From contig JBBTRC010000008.1 of NCBI GenBank assembly GCA_038065355.1, positions 5,406 through 69,405 of the forward strand: a stretch of 64,000 nucleotides of DNA, in the 5' to 3' direction. This DNA comes from Patescibacteria group bacterium (GTDB lineage: Bacteria > Patescibacteriota > Minisyncoccia > Phycocordibacterales > UBA918). Position 1 is the first letter of the stretch. Each line of letters starts with the position of its first letter. The translations under genes and the position numbers were made by a program. Below are positions 44,082 to 63,968 of the stretch, one piece after another. Under the pieces are notes generated by a model. That model saw nothing but the letters and a program-made list of their open reading frames with translations, did not search any database and was not told the DNA's origin.

Positions 44082-44085
44082 ATGG

Positions 44086-44952: not shown

Positions 44953-44955
44953 GAA

Positions 44956-45537: not shown

Positions 45538-45543
45538 AAAATA

Positions 45544-45864
45544 TTAATCATTATTTTTATAATGTTTTGGCGACCTAAAGAACAGAACCGCCACTACAAT
45601 ATCCACAACAGACCAAAGGAAGTGACCGAAATATAGTGGGTTGATCGGATTAAAAACAATAGCGATACCAATCATGATCAACATCCATTTCTTGTTCTTT
45701 TCTTTATGATAAAGATACACAGAGAATACAGCCGATCCAAAAACCACAAGTTTCAACGCTTGGTAAAAGAAATAAGGCCAGATTGGAATTACAGCAACAA
45801 GCAAAACAATGGCCGCAATCTTTGAGAATAGTATTCGATATTCGCTTTGTTCTTTGGTTACCAT
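45544..45864 (-). CDS. Small polytopic membrane protein
   Basis: 106 aa, three hydrophobic segments. Confidence 0.4.
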   Translation of the reverse strand: MVTKEQSEYRILFSKIAAIVLLVAVIPIWPYFFYQALKLVVFGSAVFSVYLYHKEKNKKWMLIMIGIAIVFNPINPLYFGHFLWSVVDIVVAVLFFRSPKHYKNND

Positions 45865-45869
45865 ATTTT

Positions 45870-47048: not shown

Positions 47049-47823
47049 TTATCGATGCTGTACTAACACACGAGTTTCTCTCAATGTCCCAGTCATATCC
47101 ATATCCACAATCGCACACTCGTTTCCCATCTTCCGTAGTCGAATAAGCACCAGTTCCATAACTATTCACGCACGACTGATTGAACGAGCTAAGGGAATAA
47201 CATGCAGTTCGCCCGCTATCCCAGTAAGAACCAACTTCACAATCACATATGTTTTTTCCGTCAGCAGGATCTACTTTAAGGAAACTTGTCCCTGGCCACT
47301 GTGAAGCACAGCTTTCATCACGTGCAACTGTGAAGTTTACGCACTGTTGCGAGGTAGCACCTAAGGAATATCCAGCTGTACAACCGCAAGAATTCGTAGC
47401 ACTATCATATGTTGCATTGTATCCATTACGCTCCTGACAAATTTCTAGAGGAGTTTGAACCACAGGAGTTGTTTGTGTCCTTTCGGCTACTGGAACGTAG
47501 GAATTTGTATCTGTCTCTGCTTCGACATCTGTTTCTGAAGTATCAAAAATATCATTCAATGATTCGCTATTTGAGGGTGGGGGCAAAGTATTAGTCGTTG
47601 CTGTGCTATTACTATCTCCACTACTGGCACTTACAGCAATAATAATTATTAAAACTCCAAGAGCAATCGCTCCCAGTGTCCATTTAGCACCATCTGACAT
47701 TGCTGACTCATCAACCGTCGATTTATGTGACGGTTGATGAGATCCCTTCTTTTCTGATTTTTTAGGAGCACCTTCCCCAAGGAAGTCCAAATCAAGTTTT
47801 AGTTTTTTATCTTTATGCTCCAT
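46960..47823 (-). CDS. Membrane-anchored extracytoplasmic cysteine-rich protein
   Basis: Lys-rich N-terminus, one TM (LGAIALGVLIIIIAVSA), Thr/Ser-rich linker, and a C-terminal domain with at least 16 Cys in repeated CxC/GY patterns. Confidence 0.45.
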   Translation of the reverse strand: MEHKDKKLKLDLDFLGEGAPKKSEKKGSHQPSHKSTVDESAMSDGAKWTLGAIALGVLIIIIAVSASSGDSNSTATTNTLPPPSNSESLNDIFDTSETDVEAETDTNSYVPVAERTQTTPVVQTPLEICQERNGYNATYDSATNSCGCTAGYSLGATSQQCVNFTVARDESCASQWPGTSFLKVDPADGKNICDCEVGSYWDSGRTACYSLSSFNQSCVNSYGTGAYSTTEDGKRVCDCGYGYDWDIERNSCVSTASINAICEKDVGRNSRYAGYVEDGKYICTAPY

Positions 47824-47828
47824 AGTTT

Positions 47829-48542
47829 TTATTCAAATAATGCACTGGCAATGACCAATACGTAGAAAATTGCAGGCGCAACAACGAACCAGAATATACC
47901 TCGACCTTTCTGCACATGCATGACTTTTTTCACACCCTGATAACTAATATAAATTGAGTAGCCGATTGCCAAGAGAGAAAGAATTCCAAAAATAACATCC
48001 ACACTGGATGCTTCTGAATAATAGAGATCAAAATAATCACTGCCGTAAGCAACGTGATTAAGGAGCAGAGAACCAATAGCTGTCACTGAAATTGGGAGAG
48101 AAGAAAAAGTATAGATATTTCGGGCTGTATCGATAGTGCCAGATCCTTTTGACCATCCGACTCGAACATGATAGAACCAGCCACCGATGTAATAAGCAAT
48201 TGCTCCAGATAAGATACCTCCGAATAGAGCAATCGCCCAAACTTCACCCCAACTAGAGGATTCAGAGCCAGTAAGTCGATCCGCTGCACTCCCGATACCA
48301 AGAATCCAAATCGCCAAAAGTAGGTATTTTGGATTAGATGTAACCAGATGTTTCTGTGCGAATTCGCTAAAGTTTGTAAAACAGTCTTTAAAATACTCAA
48401 AGAATTTAACTCTATCTGCACTAGGAACAGACGTAGGCTCTGGGGTTGCGACTGGAACACTAGTTTGCTCCCCAGCTTTTTGTGGACTTTTGTCTAAGAA
48501 ATCAAAATTTAAAGATTTTTTCTCGTTCATATATTTATCCAA
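47829..48542 (-). CDS. Polytopic membrane protein (Yip1-like topology)
   Basis: Soluble N-terminal ~60 aa, then 5 TM helices. Confidence 0.4.
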   Translation of the reverse strand: MDKYMNEKKSLNFDFLDKSPQKAGEQTSVPVATPEPTSVPSADRVKFFEYFKDCFTNFSEFAQKHLVTSNPKYLLLAIWILGIGSAADRLTGSESSSWGEVWAIALFGGILSGAIAYYIGGWFYHVRVGWSKGSGTIDTARNIYTFSSLPISVTAIGSLLLNHVAYGSDYFDLYYSEASSVDVIFGILSLLAIGYSIYISYQGVKKVMHVQKGRGIFWFVVAPAIFYVLVIASALFE

Positions 48543-50130
48543 AGATTGCTCCTAAAACAATTATAATAATAATCCACACGACCCAGCCGATCACACTCGA
48601 CTTTGTGTTCTCTGCTTTTTTATTTTTAATCACTTCACCAAGTCCTACGTAATAGTAGGAGTTGAGAAGGATCTTAATTGCCATCTGCTCCCAGCGTTCA
48701 TCGAATGCCTCATCGATTTTCTTCAACATCTTATTTTGAACCTCATCCACTTCACTTGCATTATCCGCAGTAAGAACCTTAACGTTGTTTTTAATCAAAT
48801 CTAGCCAGGAGTCGATTACGCTCTTGTCTACATCATAAATTTCAATGTGTTCATACACAATCGATGCTGATTTTTGAAGTCCAGGTCGAGCCTCGTCGTA
48901 TTTATCAGCTTCAAATAACTTCTTCGCCTCAACGAACTCGACCACAGCATACATCGTAACAGCTTCCTTTTTCTTGCTATCCATCGCATTTTTAAATTCT
49001 GGATCTTTGCTCTCAGACTTCTTTTGATCTATGAGTGCTATCGCTTCTTGGAACTTCTTCTCATTCATGAGTTCCATGATTGGAGCTGTTGCATTTAAGA
49101 ACTTCTTATTTTCTTCAAATTGGTCGAGATCCTGCTTAAGTTTGTTTTCCATCCCAGATGTACCAACAAACTGCATAGCAATCTTTAGAAGTTGCTCAGC
49201 TTTGGGCATATCGTCCAAATTATTGTGGATATCAAGAACAATAGAACGTATCGCACCCGCCGCTCGGTCACGTATCGTTTTTGATTGACTGTCATCATAT
49301 AGACCGAGATCGATCAGCTTGTTGCAACAATCTTGGATTTTTCCGATATGTTCTTTGATATCTGAAGCTTCTTGTGCATCAAGGTCACCATCCTCTGAAA
49401 CCTTCATTGCTTCGAGCTTCTCGACCGCTTCTGTAATCTCCTGAAATATTGGAGCCATTACAACTTTCTCAGTCTTTTCTCCACGAAGATTAAATACTTT
49501 AGTAAATTCAGCTATGTAACCTCCATCCTCTCGAGAATGACTAATCTCTGTATAAAGATCAGAGAGAAATGAGGGTATCTGTTTATGAAAATCAGAGATA
49601 ACTTCTTGATCAGTATCAAGCTCATCGTTATGCTTATATACCTTTGTGAAAGCTGTCCAGAATTTTGATGAGTTAGTAAGCTCGTGCCAGATTTTTAAAG
49701 ACTCTTTTAGATATCGTTTATTGTCTTCTTTGAAAAGTAAGATGCAATACAGAAGCGCTAGATTCTTTTTATAAAACATCGCCTTTGTAGTATCGCCTTC
49801 GGAATTATGTTCCCAAACCCTTATAGCTCCTTCTGGATCTTTCTTACGAAGAATACCGACCGCTTGTTCGTCTACATCGTCAGAAATATGAAACCAGAAG
49901 AAATAATCCTTAATCTGCTTCTTTGGTGAAGAGAGTTTTTGAACAGCGTCCTTTATTGCACCTTCCGTTCGAAAGTTATCGAACACTCCCATATCTAGGT
50001 CGTATTCTGGAGTATCATCAATTTGGAGAAACTTTACAATTTCCTTTGCACGTTTCTGCATATCTCGTTGTGAAGCCGACGTGTCGAGACCGAGGATGTG
50101 ATATGCATTATTTTTTAATAGGTTTGACAT
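48535..50130 (-). CDS. J-domain-like protein with degenerate HPD motif and long helical C-terminal region; putative co-chaperone of adjacent Hsp70
   Basis: N-terminus NAYHILGLDTSASQRDMQKRAKEIVKFLQIDD aligns to the J-domain helices II-III (Y.ILG...AS...I.KAY.KL....HPD) but has IDD where HPD should be. Its start overlaps the next gene by 8 nt and lies 4 nt below the Hsp70 stop codon. Confidence 0.45.
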   Translation of the reverse strand: MSNLLKNNAYHILGLDTSASQRDMQKRAKEIVKFLQIDDTPEYDLDMGVFDNFRTEGAIKDAVQKLSSPKKQIKDYFFWFHISDDVDEQAVGILRKKDPEGAIRVWEHNSEGDTTKAMFYKKNLALLYCILLFKEDNKRYLKESLKIWHELTNSSKFWTAFTKVYKHNDELDTDQEVISDFHKQIPSFLSDLYTEISHSREDGGYIAEFTKVFNLRGEKTEKVVMAPIFQEITEAVEKLEAMKVSEDGDLDAQEASDIKEHIGKIQDCCNKLIDLGLYDDSQSKTIRDRAAGAIRSIVLDIHNNLDDMPKAEQLLKIAMQFVGTSGMENKLKQDLDQFEENKKFLNATAPIMELMNEKKFQEAIALIDQKKSESKDPEFKNAMDSKKKEAVTMYAVVEFVEAKKLFEADKYDEARPGLQKSASIVYEHIEIYDVDKSVIDSWLDLIKNNVKVLTADNASEVDEVQNKMLKKIDEAFDERWEQMAIKILLNSYYYVGLGEVIKNKKAENTKSSVIGWVVWIIIIIVLGAIFG

Positions 50131-50133
50131 AAA

Positions 50134-52647
50134 TTATTTAGTAATACCAGACATGTTACCTTGTATCATTTTCTGCTCGCTCGGCGGAAGGAGAAGCATC
50201 AGGTTGTGTACCGACCTTTTAAGTTCCTCAACATCGCCAAGCTCAAGGGCACGCTGTCCTTTATTCATGTAGTACTCAGCCTCTTTCGGACTTGTCCAAG
50301 CATGACTAGTTTCCTTTATCTTATTGAACATATAGACCCATGATGCAGGATTTGAGAAAAGTGCCTTATGATTGAGTTCTTGAAGCTGTTCCAATGAACG
50401 GCTGAGCATTACCTTGTCCTCTTTACCAATAGCCAGATCAGCTTCTTCCTTGATCACACGCAACTGGTCTTCGTACATTGCTTTTTCTGTCTGTTCACTC
50501 CATTCACTAATAATTCCTTCTACACTTTTTACCTTTTCTTCGTATTCTGATTTAAGCTGTGGAAACTCTTTCATCTTTTCGAGACCATCGAGCCGGATTT
50601 TTAGATCTTTGAGTTGTTTATCAGCCTTTCGTTTTTCATCCTCATCCACTTTTGCAGTCGATAGACTTCCTTCAAGAGACTGGACCAGATTCTGAAGCTT
50701 ACCTTTCTCTTCTGGAGTACATGATTGTTCGACTTTTTTCGCACGCTCGCTCTGCTCCTTGAGCTGTGTCTCCATTTCTTCGACACTCAAATTTTCTGCA
50801 TGGATTGTCGCACGTGCACTAAACGTGAGATCAATCGACGGAATAAACGCCTCCACCTTAACCTCACGAGATTCGTTCACCTCGATTGTAAGTGCAATTT
50901 CTGTACCTTCTGGTAAATCATATGGGAGTTTTTCTCCTGTCACCTTGAGGTCACAAATGAACTGATTCTGATCTGGCACAGCTGATTCACCTTCACGGAT
51001 TTTGATCGGGAGTGCGTTCTCTTTATCACCTTTGGCAAGCGGTTTAAGTGTCTTATATGTATGTGTGGCTTTGAGGGGAAGAATACTATTTTTCTCAAAA
51101 ATCACTTCAAACTCCTCGGTCATAGCAAAGCTAGCACCACTGAATCCACGCTTTACAACTCCTACTCCTATGGAGTGTGGTATCGGTGCACCAGACACTG
51201 AAAGACCGTGCGTTATAGAGAACGCCTCTGGTTCGGTTTTGATCGGGTTTCCTTCTGCATCGAACAAGTAAATCCAAAAGAGAGTAGTTTTGTTTTTATC
51301 GAGATTTACAGTTTCAATAAATTTGCCATTCTTAAGTTTTATTTTCTTTCCGCTAAAGAGTCCTCCCTCGCTCTGTATCTGAATGAAGTATTCTTCTTCT
51401 GTATCCTTAAGCTCTTCTACGACTCCAGTTATGGTCTCTTCGGTTTCGGAAGTCAGGGATTCATAGTTGAGACGCAAGGTTTTAATTGAGGAATCAGTTA
51501 ACTTTTTTGACTCAAGAAATTCCTTTGGAATCTTCTGGCTCACAGCATAGATACATGCACCACGCGCAACGACGGTTAGTGGATCGGACGAAGTGTCTAC
51601 TTCTATCTTCAAGTCTTTTTCCAAACGATCTTTTACGTACGGAATCATAGTAGGTCCGCCAACAAGTACAATCCTTGAAATGGATGATTGCTTCACTCCA
51701 GCCTCCTTAATGGTCTCCTTACTCAATTCAACAGTTTTATCGACAAACGGTTTAATCAGCTTTTCGAAATCTTTACGGGTAAAAGGTATAGTGAGATATA
51801 TTTCCTTGTTGTTGTCATCATCACCGATCTTTTCAACCTCGATAGTTATTTCATCAGTTTGAGAAAGTGAAATCTTTGCCGTCTCTGCATAGTATTTAAG
51901 CTTTGCAAACACACTACGATATTTTTTACTACTACGAGTAAAGTCTTCGATTTCATACTTTTCTAGAATAGCTGGTACGATGACCTTATCCACAACAGCC
52001 CAATCGAAATCTTTACCACCAAGGAAGTTGTCTCCATTATGCCCTAGTACAGAAAGTGCACCGTCCTTTGACGAAATGAGGGCAACATCGAACGTACCGC
52101 CTCCCAAGTCATACACAAGCCAGTTTTCATTCTGAGAATTCATAAAACCGTAAGCTATTGCCGCCGCAATCGGTTCCTGTATTAAGACCACATGCTTGAA
52201 GCCCGCAACATTACCCGCACGCTTGGTGGCTTCTGCTTGAAGCGTTGAAAAATAGGCAGGTATCGTGATGACAACACCAGTGGTTGGTGTGCCAGGATAC
52301 TTACGCAAAACATCTTCTTTAAGGCTCTTTAAAATTTCTCCAGAAATTTCTTCTGGAGACATATCCTCACCAAGACGATCGAAATGGACGGTGTCCGAAG
52401 TACCCATCAAGCGTTTTACTTCCGCCTTGTTATTTGAAAATTCTTCTTCTGATGCGTCTTTATAGAGACGCTCATAGGCTCGTTTTCCGACAACTTTATT
52501 TTTTGCTTTATCTACGCCAAAAACTGACGGCGTGTATTCATCATTAAAAATATTTTTAACCACCTCCACATGGTTTTTATTGTTTGCTGCAACTTCGGAA
52601 TTTGTTGTACCTAGGTCGATACCAATCTGTATGTTTTGGTTGTTCAT
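50134..52647 (-). CDS. Atypical Hsp70-family ATPase (DnaK-like NBD+SBD with about 200-aa coiled-coil C-terminal extension)
   Basis: IGIDLGTTNSEVA phosphate-1 motif, DLGGGTFDVALIS, and IVLVGGPTMIPYV. 837 aa compared with about 640 for DnaK. Confidence 0.8.
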   Translation of the reverse strand: MNNQNIQIGIDLGTTNSEVAANNKNHVEVVKNIFNDEYTPSVFGVDKAKNKVVGKRAYERLYKDASEEEFSNNKAEVKRLMGTSDTVHFDRLGEDMSPEEISGEILKSLKEDVLRKYPGTPTTGVVITIPAYFSTLQAEATKRAGNVAGFKHVVLIQEPIAAAIAYGFMNSQNENWLVYDLGGGTFDVALISSKDGALSVLGHNGDNFLGGKDFDWAVVDKVIVPAILEKYEIEDFTRSSKKYRSVFAKLKYYAETAKISLSQTDEITIEVEKIGDDDNNKEIYLTIPFTRKDFEKLIKPFVDKTVELSKETIKEAGVKQSSISRIVLVGGPTMIPYVKDRLEKDLKIEVDTSSDPLTVVARGACIYAVSQKIPKEFLESKKLTDSSIKTLRLNYESLTSETEETITGVVEELKDTEEEYFIQIQSEGGLFSGKKIKLKNGKFIETVNLDKNKTTLFWIYLFDAEGNPIKTEPEAFSITHGLSVSGAPIPHSIGVGVVKRGFSGASFAMTEEFEVIFEKNSILPLKATHTYKTLKPLAKGDKENALPIKIREGESAVPDQNQFICDLKVTGEKLPYDLPEGTEIALTIEVNESREVKVEAFIPSIDLTFSARATIHAENLSVEEMETQLKEQSERAKKVEQSCTPEEKGKLQNLVQSLEGSLSTAKVDEDEKRKADKQLKDLKIRLDGLEKMKEFPQLKSEYEEKVKSVEGIISEWSEQTEKAMYEDQLRVIKEEADLAIGKEDKVMLSRSLEQLQELNHKALFSNPASWVYMFNKIKETSHAWTSPKEAEYYMNKGQRALELGDVEELKRSVHNLMLLLPPSEQKMIQGNMSGITK

Positions 52648-52659
52648 AAAATATATTCC

Positions 52660-53181
52660 TTAGTTACTTAATAATATGATCTTGGCCTTTTTAACGACCT
52701 GACCTTTAACCAAAATTGTTGGCTCAACGGTTTCTTTCACCACAGGCGATACCACGGTAGGATCTTTTTCTACCGAGAGAACATCTAGGTTCAGTCCGTC
52801 ATTGAATTTCTGATTGGTGTAATCAATAATCTCAATGTCGTAATTGGATATATACCGTCTAAACTTGAGGACAGAATTCTCTAACCCCTTTCGTTGGTTT
52901 TCCTGAAGACTGTCAGCAATTTTTAATAATCGTTGTTCAACTCGCCACACTTCTGTCGCAAGTTCAACGAGTTCAGCGACGCTCGTAGAAAGATTTATAG
53001 ATTTGGGAGCAACAGCGTATTTAATTTCCTCGCTAATCTTTTTGTAGAGTTCATCAAATTTATCTGAAGCTTCTGTACTCTGCCCTGATTTGCGTCTAAG
53101 TAAATATAGAAATGCAAATATAAAAAATATCGCAATTACGAGAACGAGTATAAATATTGGATTTAAAAATAAGTTATTCAT
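52660..53181 (-). CDS. Membrane-anchored hypothetical protein
   Basis: N-terminal TM (LNPIFILVLVIAIFFIFAFLYLL), followed by a helical region. Confidence 0.4.
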   Translation of the reverse strand: MNNLFLNPIFILVLVIAIFFIFAFLYLLRRKSGQSTEASDKFDELYKKISEEIKYAVAPKSINLSTSVAELVELATEVWRVEQRLLKIADSLQENQRKGLENSVLKFRRYISNYDIEIIDYTNQKFNDGLNLDVLSVEKDPTVVSPVVKETVEPTILVKGQVVKKAKIILLSN

Positions 53182-53182
53182 T

Positions 53183-53518
53183 TTATTTCATTAACTCGTC
53201 AGTAGGGACACCTACTGCTTTAGCCAATTTGGCAATGGTTGCGAGAGTGGGGTTTGTCTTACCATTCTCGATATTGCTTATAAAGCTTCGACTGACCTCA
53301 AGTTCCCGAGCAATATCACCCTGAGAGATATTCTTTGCTGTTCGGATACGCTTAAGGTTATTACCTAATTTTTCTGACTCGCTTTTCATAATCTCACTAT
53401 ACGCTCTGTTATAGTTTAACACAACAGTATCATATAGTGTACTACCTCCAGAGTGTTCTAGTTGTGCAGAAAGTATGCTCATGATAATTCGACTTTCTCT
53501 CTTAAATCTTGGAAGCAA
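53183..53518 (-). CDS. XRE-family HTH transcriptional regulator (Cro/CI-like)
   Basis: C-terminal HTH_3: LKRIRTAKNISQGDIARELEVSRSFISNIENGKTNPTLATIAKLAKAVGV. Confidence 0.65.
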   Translation of the reverse strand: MLPRFKRESRIIMSILSAQLEHSGGSTLYDTVVLNYNRAYSEIMKSESEKLGNNLKRIRTAKNISQGDIARELEVSRSFISNIENGKTNPTLATIAKLAKAVGVPTDELMK

Positions 53519-54072
53519 ACTGGTGATATTTGTTGCTTAGTAAGGAGCACCATCGATACGCTAGCCCTGTTTTTCGATATATTTCGTAGTTCATCTTTAG
53601 AAAGGACATAGAAGCACCACTGATCCATATCGAGGATGTCGAGCGTGGCGTGTTCTTGGTGTTTGAACAGTGCAAGGACGTAGATGTCGGATTTGTAGTC
53701 GGCAAGCTTGTTCAATTCAGAAAGCTTAGTGACGGCTTCCGAGTAGTACAGTTCTTTTGCTTTGAGTCCTGACCATTGGATCGTCGTGAGTTTGTTCTGA
53801 TCCCAGTCTTGGATATATGAACAGCATTTCACTTCTATCTTCTTTCCTTTATACAAAACATCGTAGTCACCCCACGGACTGCGAACTTCAATCTCCATAT
53901 TGTCCTTGAGTGCGTTCTCGACGATGAACTCGGCAAGTGCACCTCGAAGTACGTTCGAGTTCAGACTTGAAAAGCCATACTGCCAGAATTCCAGTACGGA
54001 GAATTTCTTTTGACCGACATTTTTAAATTGTTCAGAGCCTGTGAGTTTGCTCACAGGAATTCTTTTATACAT
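53479..54072 (-). CDS. Hypothetical protein with PD-(D/E)xK-nuclease-like motif
   Basis: GDYDVLYKGKKIEVKC fits the D ... E-x-K pattern, a weak single-motif call. First gene of the minus-strand block, overlapping the XRE gene by 40 nt. Confidence 0.3.
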   Translation of the reverse strand: MYKRIPVSKLTGSEQFKNVGQKKFSVLEFWQYGFSSLNSNVLRGALAEFIVENALKDNMEIEVRSPWGDYDVLYKGKKIEVKCCSYIQDWDQNKLTTIQWSGLKAKELYYSEAVTKLSELNKLADYKSDIYVLALFKHQEHATLDILDMDQWCFYVLSKDELRNISKNRASVSMVLLTKQQISPVCFQDLREKVELS

Positions 54073-54203: not shown

Positions 54204-54260
54204 TTGGACGGATTTTCGACCATATCCGAAAAGTTTTAAGGCTTTTCGGGGTTAGGTCTC
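54204..54260 (+). repeat. Copy A of direct repeat ttggacggNttttcgaccatatc ... gggttaggtct, upstream of the DGR target gene
   Basis: Shares a 23-nt core and an 11-nt 3' box with copy B at 57328..57376. The core is also the near-palindromic partner of the MITE-like element's right end. Confidence 0.4.
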
Positions 54261-54547
54261 TTATTCAGTTGTACCTAGAACATAATACCAAAATTGATGG
54301 TATTAGTCAGTAGCTTAGCTTAGAAAAAGGCAGTTGCGAAGCCCTTTTACCGACATTTGACAGATTGCCAAAATCATTGACAAACAGTCATTTGTTTGAT
54401 ATGATACTTGAGACTGCTCTTTGAGATAAGAATCACTGCATAACGATGTTTGAGATGAGCTTTTTGAGCCTTAAATCAGGGCCTAGAAAGCTCGTCTCAA
54501 ACTGAGGCAAGTCGTTCCGAGCGTTCTCGGTAAATCAGCAAAAGGAG

Positions 54548-55348
54548 ATGATGTCGATGAAAACATTGAACACGTCTGCACTGGTAACCGCAGACAGTCC
54601 GAAAGGACAGAGAGCTACCGAAACGTTCCGTGCCCAATACAACAAGGCGGGACTCAACGACGAAAGCGCACAAATCCTGAACGAGAATCCCGGCTTCGCC
54701 GTGTATCTCGCCGAAGGTATCCGTCGCTTCTCAGCCAAAGCGCCCGACTACGGTTTGGCGCAGTCAATCCTCGGCACGGATTTCATCACGCCAGAGGAAG
54801 TCAGCAAGGCTCGCCCGAGCATCGTGTACACCGACGACCAGATCACGGCACTCGCCGAAAGTCTGCCGTCGGAAGACATGCTCAAGTGGTGCAAGGACAA
54901 CGGTTACGCCGTCATGCCCGCACCGCCCACGGCGATGTCACTGCTCGACGTTCGGGAGATCCAGTCCACCCACTTCTACTCGAAGACGGGTGGGTGGTAT
55001 TCCGACCAGAAGTTCGCTCGCGAAGACAGGACGTCTTTCGGATGGCTCGCCATCAAGAAGACTCCGATCTCCGACTCGACCAGCAAAAACTGGAACGAGC
55101 AGAACAAGCTTCTGTCCGCACTCGAGACGGTGCCTAACGCCGCCGAGATGAGCTGGTTCATCACGACCTATTTCGAGGTCCGTGGTATCCGACTCTTCGA
55201 AAGCATCTACGTTCGGACTTCCAGTCTCGGCTCGGGCGGTGGCCGTGTTCTCGTCGGCAGCTTCGTTTCCGGGGGTCTCATCGTCAACGACTGGGACGGC
55301 GACCGCCGCGACAGCAACATCGGCTTGTCGGGTGCCAGGAAGCAGTGA
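54548..55348 (+). CDS. DGR target (variable) protein; C-terminal variable repeat in a presumed C-type-lectin/FGE-like fold
   Basis: The last ~40 codons (VR) are a near-copy of the downstream TR, differing only at TR adenines. It ends ... NIGLSGAR, resembling the conserved CLec-fold VR terminus. AGGAG RBS at 54543 fits best with the ATG at 54557. Confidence 0.7.
   Translation: MMSMKTLNTSALVTADSPKGQRATETFRAQYNKAGLNDESAQILNENPGFAVYLAEGIRRFSAKAPDYGLAQSILGTDFITPEEVSKARPSIVYTDDQITALAESLPSEDMLKWCKDNGYAVMPAPPTAMSLLDVREIQSTHFYSKTGGWYSDQKFAREDRTSFGWLAIKKTPISDSTSKNWNEQNKLLSALETVPNAAEMSWFITTYFEVRGIRLFESIYVRTSSLGSGGGRVLVGSFVSGGLIVNDWDGDRRDSNIGLSGARKQ
55225..55339 (+). repeat. DGR variable repeat (VR)
   Basis: 115-bp alignment to TR (offset +477) with 17 mismatches, all where TR has A. 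The last 26 bp are identical and GC-rich (IMH-like). Confidence 0.8.
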
Positions 55349-55701
55349 TCCTTGATCCCTTGAGGACTTGTTCCTCTTGAATACTTGAGCCTTCGCGAAA
55401 TTTTTTTTCGCGAAGGCTCTTTCTTTTTATACATAAACAAAATATACTCTTATTATCTTGCTCATGTAGCTTGGATCACGGTTCAAGCTCGCGAGATACC
55501 TCACCTGAGAACTGCCTGAGTGCCATTAGTCTACGGATTACGGCAGAGCGCAGTAAAGGATAGAGAGAACTTCTTGCCTGTTTCTAGTGGAGATGTCTTT
55601 GAAAAAAGACTGCTCCCAAATAAAATTCAGAGATGGGAGGATATAGACCTGTAAAGGTAGTAAACCTCGATTCTCGGTGACACAGACGGAAATGGGCAAT
55701 A

Positions 55702-55816
55702 TCTCGACTCGGACGGTAACCGTGTTAACGTCGGCAACTTCGATTCCAAGGGTCTCAACGTCAACAACTGGAACGACGACAACCGCAACAGCAACATCGG
55801 CTTGTCGGGTGCCAGG
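55702..55816 (+). repeat. DGR template repeat (TR)
   Basis: Non-coding copy of the VR, rich in AAC codons in the VR frame (gacggtaaccgtgttaacgtcggcaacttcgattccaagggtctcaacgtcaacaactggaacgacgacaaccgcaacagcaac). Confidence 0.8.
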
Positions 55817-55836
55817 CAGTCATAACTCTATCCAAG

Positions 55837-55861
55837 GAAAACCCACGTAATGTGGGTTTTC
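55837..55861. terminator. 10-bp hairpin gaaaacccac-gtaat-gtgggttttc immediately 3' of TR and 3' of avd (opposite strands)
   Basis: Exact reverse-complement arms, with a T-tract on the plus strand and an A-tract on the minus. Confidence 0.4.
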
Positions 55862-55863
55862 TG

Positions 55864-56265
55864 TTAACGCTCTCTCGTGGACTTTATCCAGCCTCCAAGC
55901 ATTCTTCCGATCTCATCAAGGTTCGCTTCGATAATGATGTATTTCTTGGAGTCGATTGCCTTGATGTCCTTCATGAGACGGATGCACACTCGTAGAAAGT
56001 TAAGCTTGACGCTCGTCTTCTCCAAGGTCGGCAATTTGTCCGCTTTGGATTGCTGGCTTGAGAAAAGAATTCCCTCCAGAACCTCGATCAGAAGACTCTC
56101 GCACTTTTGCCAGAGCGTATAGCGGTCTTGTTTTGGTACGCTCAGCCTCAGAGCATAAAACTCTTTGTACAAATCGTAGGACTTCTTGAATATTGGTATG
56201 TCTAAGTCATTCATATATGAAGATTCATAATAATTTATATTGGTTGATAATTTCTCCCGAAACAC
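55864..56265 (-). CDS. avd: DGR accessory variability determinant (Avd), four-helix-bundle family
   Basis: C-terminus IIEANLDEIGRMLGGWIKSTRER matches Bordetella phage bAvd ... LIAEVGRILGSWIARVNRK. Size 117-133 aa. The probable start is Met18 at 56214. Confidence 0.6.
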   Translation of the reverse strand: MFREKLSTNINYYESSYMNDLDIPIFKKSYDLYKEFYALRLSVPKQDRYTLWQKCESLLIEVLEGILFSSQQSKADKLPTLEKTSVKLNFLRVCIRLMKDIKAIDSKKYIIIEANLDEIGRMLGGWIKSTRER

Positions 56266-57266
56266 TTTTCCGTGCGTGGGAAATATTCAAATCCGACAAA
56301 CGCAACAAGCCTGATGTTATAGAGTTTGAGCTGAACCTCGAGCAAAATATTTTTGATCTTTACAGGGATTTGAAAGCAGGAAAATACAAGCACGGACCAT
56401 ACCGAGGATTCTGGATTCACGACCCCAAGCTCAGGCGAATCCACAAGGCTACGGTACGAGATCGAGTGCTTCATCATGCTGTGTTCTATATTTTGAATCG
56501 AATATTTGAGCCGACCTTTATCAACGATTCGTATTCCTGCCGAATCGGCAAAGGTACGCACAAGGGCATGGAAAAGGTTGCCAGCATGATTCGAGCTGTG
56601 AGCAAGAACTACACGCATCCGTGTTACGCACTGAAATGCGATGTGAGAAAATTCTTTGATTCGATGGATCATGACACTCTTCTGAAGATTCTCTATAAGA
56701 AGGTTAAAGATGAGAAAGTACGCTGTCTTCTGAGCGAGATTATCGAGAGCTTCGAGGCAAGTCGTCCGAATCTTTTCGAACGCAGGGGTGTGCCGATTGG
56801 AAACCTGACCTCGCAAGTGTTCGCAAACATCTATATGAATGAATTTGATCAGTTTATGAAGCATGAGTTGAAAGTAAAAAATTATGCACGGTACACCGAT
56901 GACTTCGTGATCATTTCCGATGACAAAGCATATCTCGAAGGATTGCTAGAACCGATTGGAAAATTCCTAAAATCAAAGCTCCATCTCGATCTGCACCCGA
57001 AGAAAATAATCTTGAAGAAGCACACCCAAGGTATCGATTTTCTTGGGTACGTGATACTTCCGCATCACATCAAGCTCCGCACGAAAACGAAGCGCAAGAT
57101 TCCCAAGAAAATCCGCCAAAGCGTAGCCCTCTACAAAGACGAGCGGATAAACGAGATAACAATGAAATCCTCACTCGCTTCCTACTTGGGAGTACTTTCC
57201 CATGCCGATGCTTACGAGATGACCGAGAGCGTAAGGAATTTGTTTTGGTTCTGGCTGAGTGAATAA
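56193..57266 (+). CDS. DGR reverse transcriptase
   Basis: RT4 motif PIGNLTSQ (DGR-specific IGxxxSQ, as opposed to QGxxxSP of group II introns), YTDD catalytic box, and N-terminal KAGKYKHGPYRGFWIHDPK matching bRT KAGNYERGPYREFLVYEPK. The likely start is 56217 (MKIHNNLYW). Confidence 0.85.
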   Translation: MVCLSHSYMKIHNNLYWLIISPETLFRAWEIFKSDKRNKPDVIEFELNLEQNIFDLYRDLKAGKYKHGPYRGFWIHDPKLRRIHKATVRDRVLHHAVFYILNRIFEPTFINDSYSCRIGKGTHKGMEKVASMIRAVSKNYTHPCYALKCDVRKFFDSMDHDTLLKILYKKVKDEKVRCLLSEIIESFEASRPNLFERRGVPIGNLTSQVFANIYMNEFDQFMKHELKVKNYARYTDDFVIISDDKAYLEGLLEPIGKFLKSKLHLDLHPKKIILKKHTQGIDFLGYVILPHHIKLRTKTKRKIPKKIRQSVALYKDERINEITMKSSLASYLGVLSHADAYEMTESVRNLFWFWLSE

Positions 57267-57327
57267 AACAAAATCCTCGCAAGCCGACTCGACACAAAAG
57301 GTCGAATCCTCATGCGAGGAATCTCTC

Positions 57328-57376
57328 TTGGACGGCTTTTCGACCATATCTCTTTCGAGGGTTAGGTCTTCGGATT
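57328..57376 (+). repeat. Copy B of direct repeat ttggacggNttttcgaccatatc ... gggttaggtct, immediately downstream of the DGR RT
   Basis: See copy A. Preceded by a small hairpin tcctc-atgc-gagga at 57309..57322. Confidence 0.4.
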
Positions 57377-57430
57377 TTGTACGGCAATTATATCAAAAAT
57401 ATTCATAAGTTGAGATATAGACATCAACAT

Positions 57431-57802: not shown

Positions 57803-59083
57803 ATGGCTAAACAAAAATTAGAGTGGCGCACTGAGCGTCGCAAAGTGAAGGATCTCATTCGTTATGAAAAGAATCCTCGCAAATTATCAGCAACCCAGCT
57901 TGATGGACTGAAACGCAGTCTCAAGAAATTCAATGTCGCCGAACTGCCCTGCATCAATACTGACGGCACGCTCGTGGCAGGAAATCAGCGGGTCTTGGCA
58001 CTTTCCCTTCTTGGTCGAGGCGAGGAAGAAATCGAAGTGCGTGTACCGAATAGGACTTTGACCGATGAGGAGTTCAAAGACTATCTTCTGACTTCTAACC
58101 GTAGTGGAGCGTCATGGGACTTCGAGAAACTTGCCGCCGAGTTCAACCTCGACGAACTGCTCACTGCAGGTTTCGACTCATTCGACCTCTCAAACATCTT
58201 TGACGACAACCTTGAAGTTGAGGACGACGAGATAGACATCGAGAAAGAGATTAAGGAGGCACAGACAACAGACATCAAGTCTGGGGACAGATTCTTGCTC
58301 GGAACTCACACCCTGATCTGTGCAGACAGCACGGATCCAGAGACGGTACACAAACTTGTCGGTGAAAACAGAATTGACCTCATCAATATAGATTATCCGT
58401 ACAACATCGGCGTGGACTATTCCGCAGGTCTAGGTGGGAAGCAAAACTATGGAGGGACGACCAATGACAAGAAGACCGATGCTGAGTACGAAGAATTTCT
58501 TGCCAGCATTCTCACCAATGCAATAAGTGTCACAAAGAAAGACGCACACATCTTCACGTGGCTCGATGAGAAATATATCGGCACGATGCAGAACGTGTTC
58601 AAGACGACAGGTGTCGAGTTCAAGCGATTGTGCCTATGGGCGAAAAACTCACATAACCCGACACCAAAGATAGCGTTCAACCGAGCCGTCGAGCTGTGTA
58701 TGTATGGGGTTAAGGGCAAGCCATTCCTTTCGGACAAGATAAAGAACCTGACCGAATTCCAGAACAAGGAGATCGCTTCGGGCAATCGGCTCATTGACGA
58801 CATCCTCGACATGTTCAACATCTGGCTCGTAAAGAGACTGCCAAGCTCTGATTATCTCCATCCGACAATGAAGCCTCCTACCTTGTATGAAAAGAGTATC
58901 AGGCGATGCAGTAGACCAGGAGATGCCGTGCTTGATCTCACGGCAGGTTCGGGAAGCCTGATGGTTGCCTGTGAGGCACTTAAGCGTCGAGCGTATCTAG
59001 CGGAAATTGAACCCGTGTTCTGCCAAGTCATCATTAATCGCTTTAAGAAAATATCAAATGAAAAAATCATCAAACTCAATTAA
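57803..59083 (+). CDS. ParB-like nuclease N-terminal domain fused to a beta-class N6-adenine/N4-cytosine DNA methyltransferase
   Basis: ParB-N (KVKDLIRYEKNPRKLSATQLDGLKRSLKKFNVAELPCI...GNQRVLA). MTase motif IV region IDYPYNIG (non-canonical DYPY) and motif I DLTAGSGSLMVACE. Confidence 0.75.
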   Translation: MAKQKLEWRTERRKVKDLIRYEKNPRKLSATQLDGLKRSLKKFNVAELPCINTDGTLVAGNQRVLALSLLGRGEEEIEVRVPNRTLTDEEFKDYLLTSNRSGASWDFEKLAAEFNLDELLTAGFDSFDLSNIFDDNLEVEDDEIDIEKEIKEAQTTDIKSGDRFLLGTHTLICADSTDPETVHKLVGENRIDLINIDYPYNIGVDYSAGLGGKQNYGGTTNDKKTDAEYEEFLASILTNAISVTKKDAHIFTWLDEKYIGTMQNVFKTTGVEFKRLCLWAKNSHNPTPKIAFNRAVELCMYGVKGKPFLSDKIKNLTEFQNKEIASGNRLIDDILDMFNIWLVKRLPSSDYLHPTMKPPTLYEKSIRRCSRPGDAVLDLTAGSGSLMVACEALKRRAYLAEIEPVFCQVIINRFKKISNEKIIKLN

Positions 59084-59819
59084 GTACGGCGACAGTTTTC
59101 GCCTCGGCAACCATCTGCTTCTTTGTGCCGATTCCCGCAACAAGGACATGGTCGCCAAACTAGTCGGAGATCAAAAAATAAAAGCCGTGGTCATCGACCC
59201 TCCGTACGGAGTTGCCGTAACCGAGAGCAAGGAGGGATTCCAGACGCTCGCGAAGAACAAGGTGATCGCAAACGACCATCTCCAAAGCGACGAGGAATAC
59301 CGCAAGTTCACATCGGACTGGATCGAGGCAGTTACTCCGCATCTTGAACGCAAGAACTCTTTCTACATCTTCAACTCGGACAAGATGGTCTTCGCCCTGC
59401 GTGAGGGCATGGTGGATGCGGGTGTGAAGTTCGGACAGTTATTGATCTGGGTTAAAACGCACGCAGTCATCGGACGCATGGATTACGCACCCCAGCACGA
59501 ACTCATCGCATATGGATGGTTTGGAGTGCACGAGTTCCTGAAGTCGAAAGACAAAAGCGTCCTTCTCTGCCCGAAGCCGAACAAGAGCAAGATGCATCCG
59601 ACGACAAAACCCTTGGACTTGATTCGTCGTCTCATCTTGAACAGTACACGGATTGGTGACGTGGTGTATGACGGTTTCCTCGGAAGCGGTACCGCACTGC
59701 TTGCATGCGAACAAACCAAGCGTATCTGCATCGGTGTCGAGCTTGATCCCGAATACTGCCAGACGATCATCGACCGCTTTGAGAAATTAACAGGAATTAA
59801 GGCGGAACGGTATGAGTAG
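59058..59819 (+). CDS. Beta-class DNA methyltransferase (DPPY), tandem paralog of the upstream MTase domain
   Basis: VIDPPYGV motif IV and DGFLGSGTALLACE motif I. N-terminal DSFRLGNHLLLCADSRNKDMVAKLVG parallels DRFLLGTHTLICADSTDPETVHKLVG of the upstream gene. The ORF track's earliest Met is 59007. Confidence 0.75.
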   Translation: MKKSSNSIKYGDSFRLGNHLLLCADSRNKDMVAKLVGDQKIKAVVIDPPYGVAVTESKEGFQTLAKNKVIANDHLQSDEEYRKFTSDWIEAVTPHLERKNSFYIFNSDKMVFALREGMVDAGVKFGQLLIWVKTHAVIGRMDYAPQHELIAYGWFGVHEFLKSKDKSVLLCPKPNKSKMHPTTKPLDLIRRLILNSTRIGDVVYDGFLGSGTALLACEQTKRICIGVELDPEYCQTIIDRFEKLTGIKAERYE

Positions 59820-60234
59820 ACGTGACACCATCAAAGCCCGACAAAACAAGCTCAAGGAGGCGTTCCTTGAGCAGTTGAAGCGTACACCGACGATCGAGAC
59901 TGCGTGCCAGAAAGTCGGAGTGGCTCGGGCGACAGTGTATCGATGGATCAGCGGGAACAAGAAGTTTGAAAAGCTGGTGGACGAAGCCTTGGTCGAAGGC
60001 AGGACGTTCATGTCAGACATCGCCGAGAACCAGCTCTTTTCCCTCATCGGCGACAAGAAGATCGAAGCAATCAGGCTGTACCTGTCGACACACAACGCAC
60101 GGTACAGCAACAAGATCGAGTTATCTGGATCTGTGTCGAAAGACGAGCCGCTCACCAAGGAGCAGAAGAAGCTTATCCGCGAAGCTCTAAAGCTTTCGTC
60201 ATTACGCAACTATGGCAAGAGAAAGGAAAAGTAA
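59812..60234 (+). CDS. Putative terminase small subunit (HTH)
   Basis: 140 aa, HTH (TPTIETACQKVGVARATVYRWISG), directly upstream of and overlapping the TerL start. Confidence 0.4.
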   Translation: MSRRDTIKARQNKLKEAFLEQLKRTPTIETACQKVGVARATVYRWISGNKKFEKLVDEALVEGRTFMSDIAENQLFSLIGDKKIEAIRLYLSTHNARYSNKIELSGSVSKDEPLTKEQKKLIREALKLSSLRNYGKRKEK

Positions 60235-61693
60235 ATCCGACAAGCTGTTCGACAGGGTTCTCTCGGACAAGGCGACGAGAAAGGTGCTCGTGCGTGAGCG
60301 GTTGGAGTATTTCTTCCCGATCTACTTCCATCGGTACATGCAGTACGAGACTGCCAATTTCCACAAGGAAATATTCGACATTCTTGAGAACGAAGCGATC
60401 AAGCTCGCCGTCATCTGTGCCTTCCGAGGCTCCGCCAAGTCGACCATCATCACGACCGCATACGTCCTGTGGTCTATTCTTGGCGTGCAACAGCGGAAGT
60501 TCATCGTCATCTGCGGTCAGACCGAACAGAAATCGAGACAGTACCTTCTCAACATCAAGAACGAGCTTCTGAACAATGACCTCCTGAAGAAAGACCTCGG
60601 ACCGTTCACTGAGGAAACGAACCATCTGGGCAATGCCACGGCGATCATAATCAAGAAGCTCAACGTGAAGATCATGATCAGCTCAGTCGAGCAGAGTATC
60701 CGTGGTATGCGACACGGCGAGCATCGTCCCGACCTCATCATTCTCGACGACATCGAGGACACGAACTCTGTGAAGACCAAGGAAGGTAGAGACAAAGCAT
60801 TCAACTGGCTAACGAGCGAGGTTGTTCCTGCGGGTAGCAAGAAGACCCGCATCATTGCCGTGGGTAACCTGCTCCATGAGGACTCGGTACTGAAGCGTCT
60901 CCAGAAAAAAATCGAGAGCGACGAGATGACGCACATGAACGGCGTGTATCGTGAGTATCCGATCATCGACGATCAAGGGAATCCTCTCTGGCTTGGGAAG
61001 TATCCGACCCCTGACGATATCGAGATGGAACGGCAAAAAACCATGAGCGAGACGGCGTGGTATCGGGAGTATCTTCTGAAGATCATCTCGACCGAGGAAC
61101 AGGTCGTGTATCCCGAATGGATACAGTGCTATGCCAAGATGCCGTATGACGGATTCCGAAGCGTTGCCATCGGTATTGACTTGGCGGTGAGCGAGAAGGA
61201 GTCTGCTGACTATACCGCCATGGTGGTAGGTCATGTCTACGGATATGGGAAGAACATGGCGATATACATCCAGCCGAATCCGATCAATGCACGTATGCCG
61301 TTCCCAGTTCAGACGCAGACAATCAAGTCACTCGTCGCCACGGAAAAGCAGAAGCATCATCGGGTGAAGCTGTACATCGAGGACGTTGGGTACCAGAAGG
61401 CACTCGTGCAAGTATTCGAGAGCCAAAGATACGATGTCGAGGGCGTGCCGACTGGACGGAGCGACAAGACCGCACGACTCAGACTGACGACTCCCTTCAT
61501 CAAAGAGGGTCGTGTGCTCTTCCCCGAGAAAGGATGCGAGGAACTTCTGATGCAACTGACAGGGTTCGGCAAAGAGACGCATGATGACCTTGCGGACGCT
61601 TTTGCGATGCTTGTTTTGAAAGTGATCGAAGATAATCCGCGCTGTGGGACAGCAGGAACTTTTGCGAATGGCGTACGCTTTGATGCCATCTAG
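60212..61693 (+). CDS. Phage terminase large subunit
   Basis: N-terminal ATPase with AFRGSAKST Walker A (Terminase_6/PBSX-type GGRGSGKS). C-terminal RNase-H-like nuclease (IGIDLAVSEKESADYTAMVV). Confidence 0.75.
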   Translation: MARERKSKSDKLFDRVLSDKATRKVLVRERLEYFFPIYFHRYMQYETANFHKEIFDILENEAIKLAVICAFRGSAKSTIITTAYVLWSILGVQQRKFIVICGQTEQKSRQYLLNIKNELLNNDLLKKDLGPFTEETNHLGNATAIIIKKLNVKIMISSVEQSIRGMRHGEHRPDLIILDDIEDTNSVKTKEGRDKAFNWLTSEVVPAGSKKTRIIAVGNLLHEDSVLKRLQKKIESDEMTHMNGVYREYPIIDDQGNPLWLGKYPTPDDIEMERQKTMSETAWYREYLLKIISTEEQVVYPEWIQCYAKMPYDGFRSVAIGIDLAVSEKESADYTAMVVGHVYGYGKNMAIYIQPNPINARMPFPVQTQTIKSLVATEKQKHHRVKLYIEDVGYQKALVQVFESQRYDVEGVPTGRSDKTARLRLTTPFIKEGRVLFPEKGCEELLMQLTGFGKETHDDLADAFAMLVLKVIEDNPRCGTAGTFANGVRFDAI

Positions 61694-61699
61694 ACTTCC

Positions 61700-62080
61700 A
61701 TGAGGGACTGCGTCATTCATTGGTATGTGGATGACATCGAAGCAATCATAGATGCGAGCAAGCATTTCAAATACCATGAGCCGACTGGCACGACTCCTTT
61801 CAATCGCATTTCCAATCTTCCTGAGACAAAGAAGCACATGAAGAGAGCGATCAAGGAACGGATGCAACTTCTAGTCGGAGCGTATATCTCGCTTGCCTCA
61901 TTTATCGACGACGACCTCGTCGATTTTTTGGAGAGCGACGAATCAAGTTTTGATAAAGAAAAGATAAAGAGGGTTTACGAGACGGTACTGGATGACATGG
62001 AAAAGCTGAGGGAAGAAATGGAGGAATTCGACCCTTTTGAGTTACCAACTTCGGGAGTCTCGGACTCACTAGACTCATAG
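61700..62080 (+). CDS. Acidic hypothetical protein
   Basis: 126-aa ORF flanked by a ~40-bp direct repeat. Confidence 0.4.
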   Translation: MRDCVIHWYVDDIEAIIDASKHFKYHEPTGTTPFNRISNLPETKKHMKRAIKERMQLLVGAYISLASFIDDDLVDFLESDESSFDKEKIKRVYETVLDDMEKLREEMEEFDPFELPTSGVSDSLDS

Positions 62081-62086
62081 AGGGTA

Positions 62087-63436
62087 TTGCGTCATTCATT
62101 GTGTTGTATGACAAACATAACAATACAAAAGCCGGAAATGGGGTTGGCACAGGAGGTATCCCCATCAGGAGTTAAGTACTGCCTGTATGCAAGAAAAAGT
62201 ACGGAACAAGAGGACAAGCAAGCATTATCAATTGAATCGCAGGTTAAGGAGATGATCACCCTCGCCGAACGGGAGGGTCTGGAGATTGTGGAAATAAAGC
62301 GAGAGTCGCACTCTTCAAAGGAGGTTGGGCAAAGACCCGTGTACAACGAGCTAATCAATGAGATCAGACAAGGAAAATTCAACGGAATACTTACATGGGC
62401 ACCCGATCGCTTGAGTCGAAATGCGGGCGACCTTGGTAGTGTGGTAGACCTGATGGATCAAGGATTGCTCCACGAAATACGCACCTACGGACAGAAGTTT
62501 ACGAACAACCCAAATGAGAAGTTTCTCCTGATGATCCTCGGATCGCAAGCGAAGCTTGAGAACGACAACAAGATGGTGAACGTGAAGCGAGGATTGCGAG
62601 CAAGGTGTGAGATGGGACTCTGGCCGTCGGTACCGCCGACTGGGTATCTGAGCCACTCTGACCGAAACAAGAAGTGCGAGGTAGTACTCGATGAGCAACG
62701 AGCTGACGTGATCAAGCAGATGTACGAGAAAGTGGCATACGACGGATGGTCTGGACGAAAGCTCTTCTACTGGCTCAAAGACGACATACGGTTCAGAACA
62801 AAGCACGGAAAGCCACTGACCCTGAGCAACATTTACATAATATTAAAGAGTACCTTCTACTACGGAGAGTTTGAGTACCCTAAAGGAGGCGGACAGTGGT
62901 ACAAGGGTGTGCACGATCCGATCATCACCAAGGACCTCTACTTGCAGGTGCAGGACAGGATCACGAGCGACCACGTGGTGCGTGACCAGAACAAGGAGTT
63001 TGCCTTCACGAGGATGATCACCTGCGGACTCTGCGGATCAGGAGTGACAGCAGACGAGAAATTCAAGAAGCTCAAGGACGGAACGACTAACAGGTACGTC
63101 TACTACGGATGCACGAAGTTCAAAGACAAAAACTGTCCGTGCGGGTATGTGCGAGAAGAAGACTTGATTGAACAGCTAGCCAGCGTGCTCGACGTGGTAT
63201 CGCTCGACGAGATCGGTATGAAAGACAGGATCAAGGCAGAAATAGAATCACACAATGAGTTCCAAGAATCGGTACTCGGGAAAGAGGTTAAGGAGAAGAT
63301 AAAGATCAAGGAGATCGACATCAGGAACTATGCGAAGCACATCCTACGAAAGCGACCAATGCACGAGAAGCGAGAGCTATTGAAGCATCTGAGGAGTAAG
63401 CTGGTGCTGAAAGATAAAACACTTACACTCGTATAA
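62087..63436 (+). CDS. Large serine recombinase (integrase)
   Basis: Resolvase catalytic N-domain (YCLYARKSTEQE ... LTWAPDRLSRN), a recombinase domain, and a C-terminal zinc ribbon (CGLCGSG ... YYGCTKFKDKNCPCGY). The track start is TTG. The first ATG is at 62108. Confidence 0.8.
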   Translation: MRHSLCCMTNITIQKPEMGLAQEVSPSGVKYCLYARKSTEQEDKQALSIESQVKEMITLAEREGLEIVEIKRESHSSKEVGQRPVYNELINEIRQGKFNGILTWAPDRLSRNAGDLGSVVDLMDQGLLHEIRTYGQKFTNNPNEKFLLMILGSQAKLENDNKMVNVKRGLRARCEMGLWPSVPPTGYLSHSDRNKKCEVVLDEQRADVIKQMYEKVAYDGWSGRKLFYWLKDDIRFRTKHGKPLTLSNIYIILKSTFYYGEFEYPKGGGQWYKGVHDPIITKDLYLQVQDRITSDHVVRDQNKEFAFTRMITCGLCGSGVTADEKFKKLKDGTTNRYVYYGCTKFKDKNCPCGYVREEDLIEQLASVLDVVSLDEIGMKDRIKAEIESHNEFQESVLGKEVKEKIKIKEIDIRNYAKHILRKRPMHEKRELLKHLRSKLVLKDKTLTLV

Positions 63437-63437
63437 A

Positions 63438-63968
63438 TTAAAAGCCTATGCCAGGATTTTTTATAGCATCAATCGCCTCAAGTCTATCTTTTACATCTCC
63501 CATCTCATCGTAATACGACTCGACCTCGTCTATTACCCCCTGCATTTCCTTAGGTCTCTTGTAGAGTATCGCTTGCAGATATTCTGAATCAAGTGCGGAA
63601 TCCAGCGGCAAAGGATCAGTCTCTTTCATAAAATCAACTAGTGAGGAATCTTTTGTTGTCATCAGAAATATGAGTGCCTCAACCATAGCTCTATCTTCGC
63701 CCTCAAACGTTATTGATTCATCTCCCATTAGTACTTTTCCAGCTTTTGAACTACTACTTGAAATTTCATCGGTATTCAAACCCTTCTTTCCAGCAAATTC
63801 TTGAATGACTTTATAAAGTGCTCTGGCAATATCTTTAACGAGTCTTCCAATAAAGTTTTTAACCTCTGGAGAATTTTCTACATAGAAAATAGAAGACTCC
63901 TCTTTGATATCTATACCGAGGTGCTTGTGCAAAAAGTCGAGAAATGCCTTTTTGTCTTTCGAGAACAC
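63438..63968 (-). CDS. Hypothetical protein
   Basis: 176-aa ORF convergent with the recombinase gene. Confidence 0.4.
   Translation of the reverse strand: MFSKDKKAFLDFLHKHLGIDIKEESSIFYVENSPEVKNFIGRLVKDIARALYKVIQEFAGKKGLNTDEISSSSSKAGKVLMGDESITFEGEDRAMVEALIFLMTTKDSSLVDFMKETDPLPLDSALDSEYLQAILYKRPKEMQGVIDEVESYYDEMGDVKDRLEAIDAIKNPGIGF

Follow-up and report, generated by a model that had tools for sequence, protein, structure and literature searches.

We analysed a 64,000-nt stretch of DNA from a Patescibacteria group bacterium (assembly GCA_038065355.1, contig JBBTRC010000008.1, positions 5,406 to 69,405 of the forward strand; hereafter the window) and found that it carries a genuine and intact diversity-generating retroelement (DGR). 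The element is very probably functional and is an ordinary example of the type already described in bacteria of the candidate phyla radiation (CPR), in which DGRs are enriched. Its parts follow one another in the order target gene, template repeat (TR), reversed avd (accessory variability determinant) and reverse transcriptase (RT) gene. A preliminary description, made from the sequence alone, had proposed a complete DGR at this place. All four components were present at the coordinates it gave, and its interpretation was borne out by every test run, whether on the RT, on Avd, on the TR and the variable repeat (VR) of the target gene, on the target fold or on the host. The CPR host that it supposed agrees with the relatives of the cassette, all of which were located in metagenome-assembled genomes of Patescibacteria.

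The differences between the two repeats were examined over their whole length. The direct repeat at 55225-55342 and 55702-55819 (offset 477 nt) is the longest and strongest repeat in the region. Its copies correspond to the VR (55225..55339, plus strand), which covers codons 227-264 at the 3' end of the target gene, and to the TR (55702..55816, plus strand), which contains 30 adenines and, read in the target frame, 10 AAC codons. Over the 115-nt core the VR differs from the TR at 17 positions. It is clear that these are not scattered, as all 17 lie at TR adenines and none at the 85 non-adenine positions; in the target frame, all 17 also fall on the first or second position of a codon. Given that the TR has 30 adenines in 115 nt, the chance that 17 random mismatches would all be at an A is about 1e-10 by our own arithmetic. 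The same adenine-only pattern was observed in 15 related loci. Both repeats end in an identical GC-rich block of 29 nt (55311-55339 in the VR), similar to an initiation of mutagenic homing (IMH) sequence, and then diverge. A 22-nt block from the 3' end of the repeat occurs at just two sites in the window, with none expected by chance, and an A-tolerant scan of the whole window revealed no second VR or target. The sole hairpin past the VR is 47 nt away and terminator-like; with its perfect 14-bp stem followed by a T-run (55387..55419, plus strand), it was assigned as the terminator of the target gene.

The RT gene has the characteristics of a DGR enzyme. Its open reading frame, on the plus strand, had been given as 56193-57266, with the motifs PIGNLTSQ and YTDD. 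Both motifs are in the translation, and the likely start is the ATG at 56217 (gene 56217..57266), which gives a protein of 349 rather than 350 residues. The protein carries the Pfam domain RVT_1, and its best solved relative is the RT of the Bordetella phage, bRT (PDB 8ub7_A; E 1.6e-44, residues 2-333). Group II RTs come next among the solved structures at E 1e-20, 24 orders of magnitude behind bRT. The alignment with bRT includes IGNLTSQVFANIY against IGSLTSQLFANVY, with the common motif IG(N/S)LTSQ(V/L)FAN, and YxDD is also common to both; the IGxxxSQ motif is a hallmark of DGRs. Similarly, the Avd homologue with the sequence EIGRMLGGWI had been recognised correctly, only its gene lies on the minus strand (55864..56214) and likely starts at the ATG at 56214, coding for 116 residues, not at the GTG at 56265. 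It matches the Pfam family PF22296 (bAvd) with 61.9 bits, the cut-off being 40.

One might suppose instead that this is not a DGR at all, that the RT comes from a group II intron, a retron or a defence RT (DRT) and that the repeat arose by chance or by recombinational duplication. The RT does give matches to group II, retron and DRT profiles; however, all of them are below the curated cut-offs, with 153 bits against a cut-off of 300 for the NCBIfam group II maturase TIGR04416 and 65 bits against 235 for the NCBIfam retron St85 RT. Rfam scans revealed no group II intron or retron RNA family. In addition, the two repeat copies differ at adenines only, TR and RT are separated by a bAvd gene, and dozens of loci show this entire arrangement. 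We consider that this explanation can practically be dismissed.

The start codons of avd and RT are divergent and only 2 nt apart (CAT AT ATG, window 56212-56219), the distance being 2-5 nt in the relatives. Because the two starts nearly abut, the promoter of each gene would have to lie inside the coding sequence of the other, unless the RNA that contains the TR reads through the antisense strand of avd into the RT gene.

The target gene (54548..55348, plus strand) appears in the open reading frame map as a frame of 266 codons, and the repeat search placed the VR at its 3' end, as had been described; its real start is probably at 54551 or 54557. A promoter-like site, TTGACA-17-TATGAT with an additional TG (54377..54405, plus strand), was found upstream by a consensus scan with 11 of 12 matches, and this promoter, together with a 5' untranslated region (UTR) of about 135 nt, is conserved in 31 distinct related loci. 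We also noticed, in the region 54377-54547 of the plus strand, that the UTR has two hairpins, one of them long (about 54455-54505) and the other small. Among the same 31 loci the conservation of the UTR equals or exceeds that of much of the coding sequence, and the variation is too low for covariation analysis.

The target gave no sequence match in Pfam, NCBIfam, PHROGs, PADLOC or PDB, either as a single protein or as profiles of 37 and 55 sequences. Its family comprises 2226 clusters at 50% identity, is without a Pfam model and could not be matched to any named VR class in Wu 2018 (PMC5758913) or Roux 2021 (PMC8144416). An AlphaFold2 model built from an alignment of 101 sequences spanning 35-92% identity (an earlier alignment of 37 close homologues had reached a pLDDT of only 49.7) confidently predicts that the N-terminal part is helical and that the C-terminal part adopts a C-type-lectin fold, the VR being located at the C-terminal end of this fold of the C-type lectin/formylglycine-generating enzyme (CLec/FGE) kind. 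Such a fold had been proposed in the preliminary description as a subject for structure modelling. The solved DGR variable proteins TvpA (2Y3C), TaqVP (5VF4) and Mtd (1YU0), as well as FGE-family proteins, have only 8-17% sequence identity to the target, which differs from them in having no Pfam FGE-sulfatase or DUF1566 match and in its own helical N-terminal part. When predicted viral structures were searched with Foldseek, no significant whole-protein match was obtained beyond the lectin fold. The lack of a signal peptide had been presented as unusual; the observation holds, although such a lack is normal for CPR DGR targets (Roux 2021, PMC8144416).

The variability of the family is concentrated where the TR would place it. 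Among 113 family members, the VR codons in which position 1 or 2 has an adenine of the TR as its template had a mean entropy of 2.55 bits, in contrast to 0.68 bits for the other VR codons and 0.76 bits for the rest of the protein (p 6e-7 and 1e-10, respectively). In the 90% cluster of the closest relative, P0002, nine proteins are identical outside the VR. The polymorphism was seen most directly in six contigs (L106-L111) of a sister lineage, which a single study obtained from different samples; their cassette and that of the window are 94.9% identical. Over about 3.1 kb, four of them (L106, L107, L110 and L111) differ only at 7-20 VR positions, at one other site in L107 and by two contig-end mismatches; L108 differs further by contig-end mismatches only, and the sequence of L109 departs from the others about 1.1 kb after the gene start, at a second copy of the target. 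Of the 20 variable VR columns among these contigs, 19 are TR adenines. Two of the contigs contain tandem target copies, at 2442-3242 and 3996-4796 in L106, identical over the whole 801-nt gene, and at 1385-2185 and 2939-3739 in L109, where the VRs were compared and are identical; the gene may truly be duplicated, or VR variants may have produced a loop in the assembly.

To place the cassette among its relatives, 36 genome loci were compared. A layout of TR, reversed avd and RT like that of the window was found in 15 of them. The TR-(avd)-RT block occurs in two orientations: downstream of the target with the TR on the VR strand (the window, L012, L015, L018 and L029), or upstream and inverted with the TR on the strand opposite the VR (L006, L011, L013, L014, L016, L017 and L031). 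In the inverted form the promoters of the TR RNA and of the target would stand back to back. In several loci a tRNA gene lies about 100-1100 nt from the 3' end of the RT gene (L006 3762-3832, L013 3743-3813, L031 3593-3681, L014 2806-2895 and L016 2825-2911). In about half of the related loci RT, avd and TR are all absent within 6 kb of the target. Three such orphan-target loci keep just the first 64-119 nt of the TR RNA (L003 9717-9789, L010 5739-5802 and L028 6751-6869), and these remnants indicate that the loci are decayed DGRs from which the TR-avd-RT block was deleted.

Comparison of the relatives also suggests that the TR lies within an RNA of about 400 nt (approximately 55455-55862) with a promoter of its own. 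Conservation begins sharply at the sequence ATCTTGC (55455) and runs through the TR to a stem-loop at 55836-55862. Six nucleotides before the conserved start is the sequence TATACT (55443..55448, plus strand), which we infer to be the -10 box of this RNA, and a TATAAT/TATACT-like box is present at the same distance in most related loci. The first part of the RNA, 247 nt from 55455 to 55701 on the plus strand, is predicted to form a structured 5' domain for which the support from covariation is strong. It has about 11 helices, one of them a long-range helix of 12 bp that closes just in front of the TR. RNAalifold predicted 61 pairs in this domain from 44 distinct aligned copies, and 34 of the 61 show compensatory changes. 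In the alignment of the full-length RNA, a structure of 74 pairs is 97.9% paired, as against 33-48% when the partners were slid, with 36 compensatory pairs against 7-11 in the slid controls; none of 500 shuffles reached the observed values. No Rfam family matched the RNA at E <= 1. The conserved region 5' of the TR was also considered as a coding sequence and rejected in this role, since it has indels whose length is not divisible by three and the changes in its helices are compensatory.

We also noticed that the 5' domain accepts extra hairpins at four of its hairpin loops, which is typical of a structured RNA with variable peripheral arms. In our alignment A6 they are at columns 53-85 (L035 and L048), 116-135 (L093), about 230-245 (L045, L048, L055, L056, L068 and L089) and about 257-290 (L050 and L091). 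The contigs L110 and L111 start with a 56-nt piece of this domain upstream of the target.

The TR is bracketed by a second pairing. The sequence GGAUAGAG at 55558..55565 (plus strand) can pair with CUCUAUCC at 55826..55833 (plus strand), directly after the TR. The duplex is 98.5% paired in 43 sequences, and a compensating variant, GGUAGGGA/UCCUUACC, is present in L005. With the 12-bp helix before it and this duplex around it, the TR would be a long unpaired stretch between two helices. The stem-loop that follows (55836..55862, plus strand, 11 bp) was seen in each of the 41 relatives that could be folded, where it has 11-17 bp and its stem occurs in many different sequences; it is a candidate for an Avd-binding stem-loop, for a bidirectional terminator common with avd, or for both.

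Taken together, the element may work as follows. A dedicated promoter would produce the TR RNA of about 400 nt (approximately 55455-55862), in which the 115-nt template would be held unpaired between the 12-bp helix closing the 5' domain and the GGAUAGAG/CUCUAUCC duplex, with the 11-bp stem-loop after it. RT and Avd, presumably bound to these RNA elements, would copy the template into cDNA and insert random bases opposite the 30 adenines. The cDNA would then replace the VR (55225-55339), guided by the identical GC-rich block at the 3' end. In this way 19 codons could be recoded, corresponding to about 10^17.6 possible proteins, on the C-type-lectin fold with which a small soluble protein ends.

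This arrangement has been described previously. The order TR-(avd)-RT with avd reversed is architecture B3, which makes up 90% of a CPR set (Wu 2018, PMC5758913), and a cellular clade of DGRs restricted to Patescibacteria (clade 2) has targets without membrane segments or known domains (Roux 2021, PMC8144416). The DGR of the window shares with the CPR-type DGRs of both studies the avd gene on the opposite strand between TR and RT, the host group, the C-terminal VR and a target without a recognisable domain, membrane segment or signal peptide, and we found no essential difference from them. It differs more from the prototype of Bordetella phage BPP-1 (mtd-avd-TR-brt), since avd is reversed here and downstream of the TR. 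Whereas in BPP-1 the coding sequence of avd and a downstream spacer of 140 nt flank the TR, the TR in the window appears to have its own promoter and a large upstream RNA domain. Also unlike BPP-1, the hairpin after the VR is 47 nt away and terminator-like, and the target is small and soluble, not a tail-fibre tip.

As for the RNA itself, Handa et al. (preprint, 10.1101/2023.10.23.563531) report that they predicted a duplex ('cPRT Stop') and an Avd-binding stem-loop in 207 of 278 DGRs, those of CPR bacteria included. Our bracketing duplex and our stem-loop may be analogous to these two elements of the Bordetella ribonucleoprotein described there, which they resemble by position only. In contrast to the Bordetella RNA, the greater part of the conserved structure here (247 nt) is 5' of the TR, and no counterpart of the primer strand, of the thumb ring or of the long RT-binding stem could be assigned in the TR RNA.

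Some of our results weigh against a functional DGR working in the manner outlined above. The RT scored well against generic and defence-RT profiles in PADLOC, so its assignment to DGRs is based on the match to bRT, the motif and the context, and not on phylogeny. The score of Avd against the NCBIfam equivalog NF033474, 79.9 bits, is 0.1 bit below the cut-off of 80. The bracketing duplex was partly ascertained through its own sequence, as a pattern search with the TR-RNA region, in which this motif served, was used to fish out 64 metagenome loci, and the covariation test of the duplex is therefore weak. The order of the RNA elements differs from that of the Bordetella RNA, the bracketing duplex here preceding the stem-loop. 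We did not identify a template-primer duplex between the 3' end of the TR and the rest of the RNA: an 8-nt match, ACUGCCUG, is specific to the window and not conserved, and for a GGCAG/CUGCC pairing the covariation neither supports nor excludes this role. Finally, the target protein of the window is identical in all four contigs that carry it, with no VR variants.

The last point would be expected if the cassette were a fossil, with recognisable parts, retrohoming stopped in this genome and the VR frozen; the decay seen in the family, with about half of the related loci lacking RT, avd and TR nearby and three retaining a short piece of the TR RNA, also speaks for it. However, the samples behind the four identical contigs are filter fractions and replicates from a single groundwater well, and the assemblies give a consensus only. 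The reading frames of target, avd and RT and the helices of the TR RNA are all intact, and the lineage with the 95%-identical cassette shows polymorphism between samples in the VR only. In addition, TR and VR are without a single difference outside the adenines, and this points to a recent copy. A fossil thus seems quite improbable. As only identical contigs represent the genome of the window, we infer activity in that genome, and the DGR of the window is probably active.

We also looked at the surroundings of the cassette. Directly downstream is a phage-derived module (57803..63436, plus strand) recognised by PHROG and Pfam matches, which comprises a ParB-DNA methylase, a DNA methylase, the small and large terminase subunits (TerS and TerL), a 126-residue protein and a large serine recombinase; TerL matches phrog_38 (6e-79) and the large serine integrase phrog_95 (3e-64). 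The AT-rich, phage-like setting of the preliminary description was upheld in part by these adjacent terminase, methylase and serine-integrase genes. As to base composition, the cassette has 43-50% G+C, like most of the window, and the AT-rich block is the neighbouring region at 38-54 kb. This block (38000-54000) has 34-41% G+C, compared with about 50% in the rest, and all its genes are on the minus strand. They include genes for an 837-residue HSP70/MreB-like protein (phrog_22485), for an AAA ATPase and an S49 peptidase, for a protein with a Yip1 domain and for several products without a match, and the block is not conserved beside the DGR in other genomes.

The left flank of the cassette, just left of the target promoter, contains a LOOT RNA (Rfam RF03000; 54126..54258, minus strand), which matched model positions 1-121 with 79.1 bits against a gathering score of 46.4 and is not a known part of DGRs. 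A partial LOOT-like copy, below Rfam detection at E <= 1, is found directly after the RT gene (57280..57430, minus strand), and the cassette is thus bracketed by a LOOT direct repeat (54204-54259 and 57328-57369). A full LOOT RNA is also present in L029 (9316-9434, minus strand, 89.6 bits), about 590 nt after the RT gene. LOOT was nevertheless rejected as a general partner of DGRs, as it occurs in just 2 of about 20 DGR loci scanned. Another repeat, the 11-mer TTAGGTCTCTT, is present at 54252-54262, at the 5' end of LOOT on the left of the cassette, and at 63550-63560, 114 nt past the stop codon of the serine recombinase gene. The distance between these copies is 9.3 kb, and what lies between them is exactly the conserved unit of DGR, terminase and recombinase. 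It was not accepted as an att core, since 11-nt repeats are expected by chance in 27 kb, and it is just a lead.

The module raises the question of whether the DGR belongs to a phage or satellite gene set, with the target as a virion or host-recognition protein of the element and not a cellular protein. In 14 of 29 related loci with a length of 9 kb or more, homologues of the module are found, in varying order, beside the same DGR, compared with 2 of 13 loci with an orphan target. An XRE-family HTH regulator is encoded upstream of the cassette in the window, and L018 also has a CI-like repressor together with a type III restriction-modification pair. On the other hand, no capsid, portal or tail gene was recognised beside the cassette, the TR-RNA motif had no match in IMG/VR, and the target had neither a PHROG match nor a significant resemblance to viral structures beyond the lectin fold. 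In many loci the cassette is found among housekeeping genes, and the Patescibacteria clade of DGRs was classed as cellular by Roux 2021 (PMC8144416). We regard it as rather unlikely that the DGR belongs to such a gene set and that the target has a virion or host-recognition role. The terminase, methylase and recombinase genes possibly form a small integrative, satellite-like element.

The recurrent linkage to terminase and serine-recombinase genes and the TR RNA defined by covariation are, in our view, leads. A tentative reading, which we consider possible and somewhat less likely to be right than wrong, joins them. The RNA of about 400 nt would be an undescribed class belonging to the CPR-type (B3) DGRs, in which the downstream elements of the Bordetella RNA would have been relocated upstream of the TR because the reversed avd fills the downstream space. 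The cassette would travel between Paceibacteria as cargo of an integrative element of about 9 kb that has terminase, methylase and serine recombinase genes and no recognisable capsid genes. If this were true, the hypervariable soluble lectin-fold protein would be a tool of a mobile element and not of the cell.

One more CPR DGR on its own alters no current view. To our knowledge, almost nothing is known of the function of CPR DGR targets or of the workings of their RNAs, and we know of no mechanistic work on DGRs other than that on one Bordetella phage element. The locus described here is a clean example with many relatives: the cassette is intact, the target belongs to a family with over 2000 clusters and now has a confident lectin-fold model, natural polymorphism is confined to the VR in a near-identical lineage, and the helices of the TR RNA are defined by covariation. 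It gives concrete constructs with which to ask whether the RNA-guided priming model derived from Bordetella holds for the commonest architecture of DGRs in CPR bacteria.

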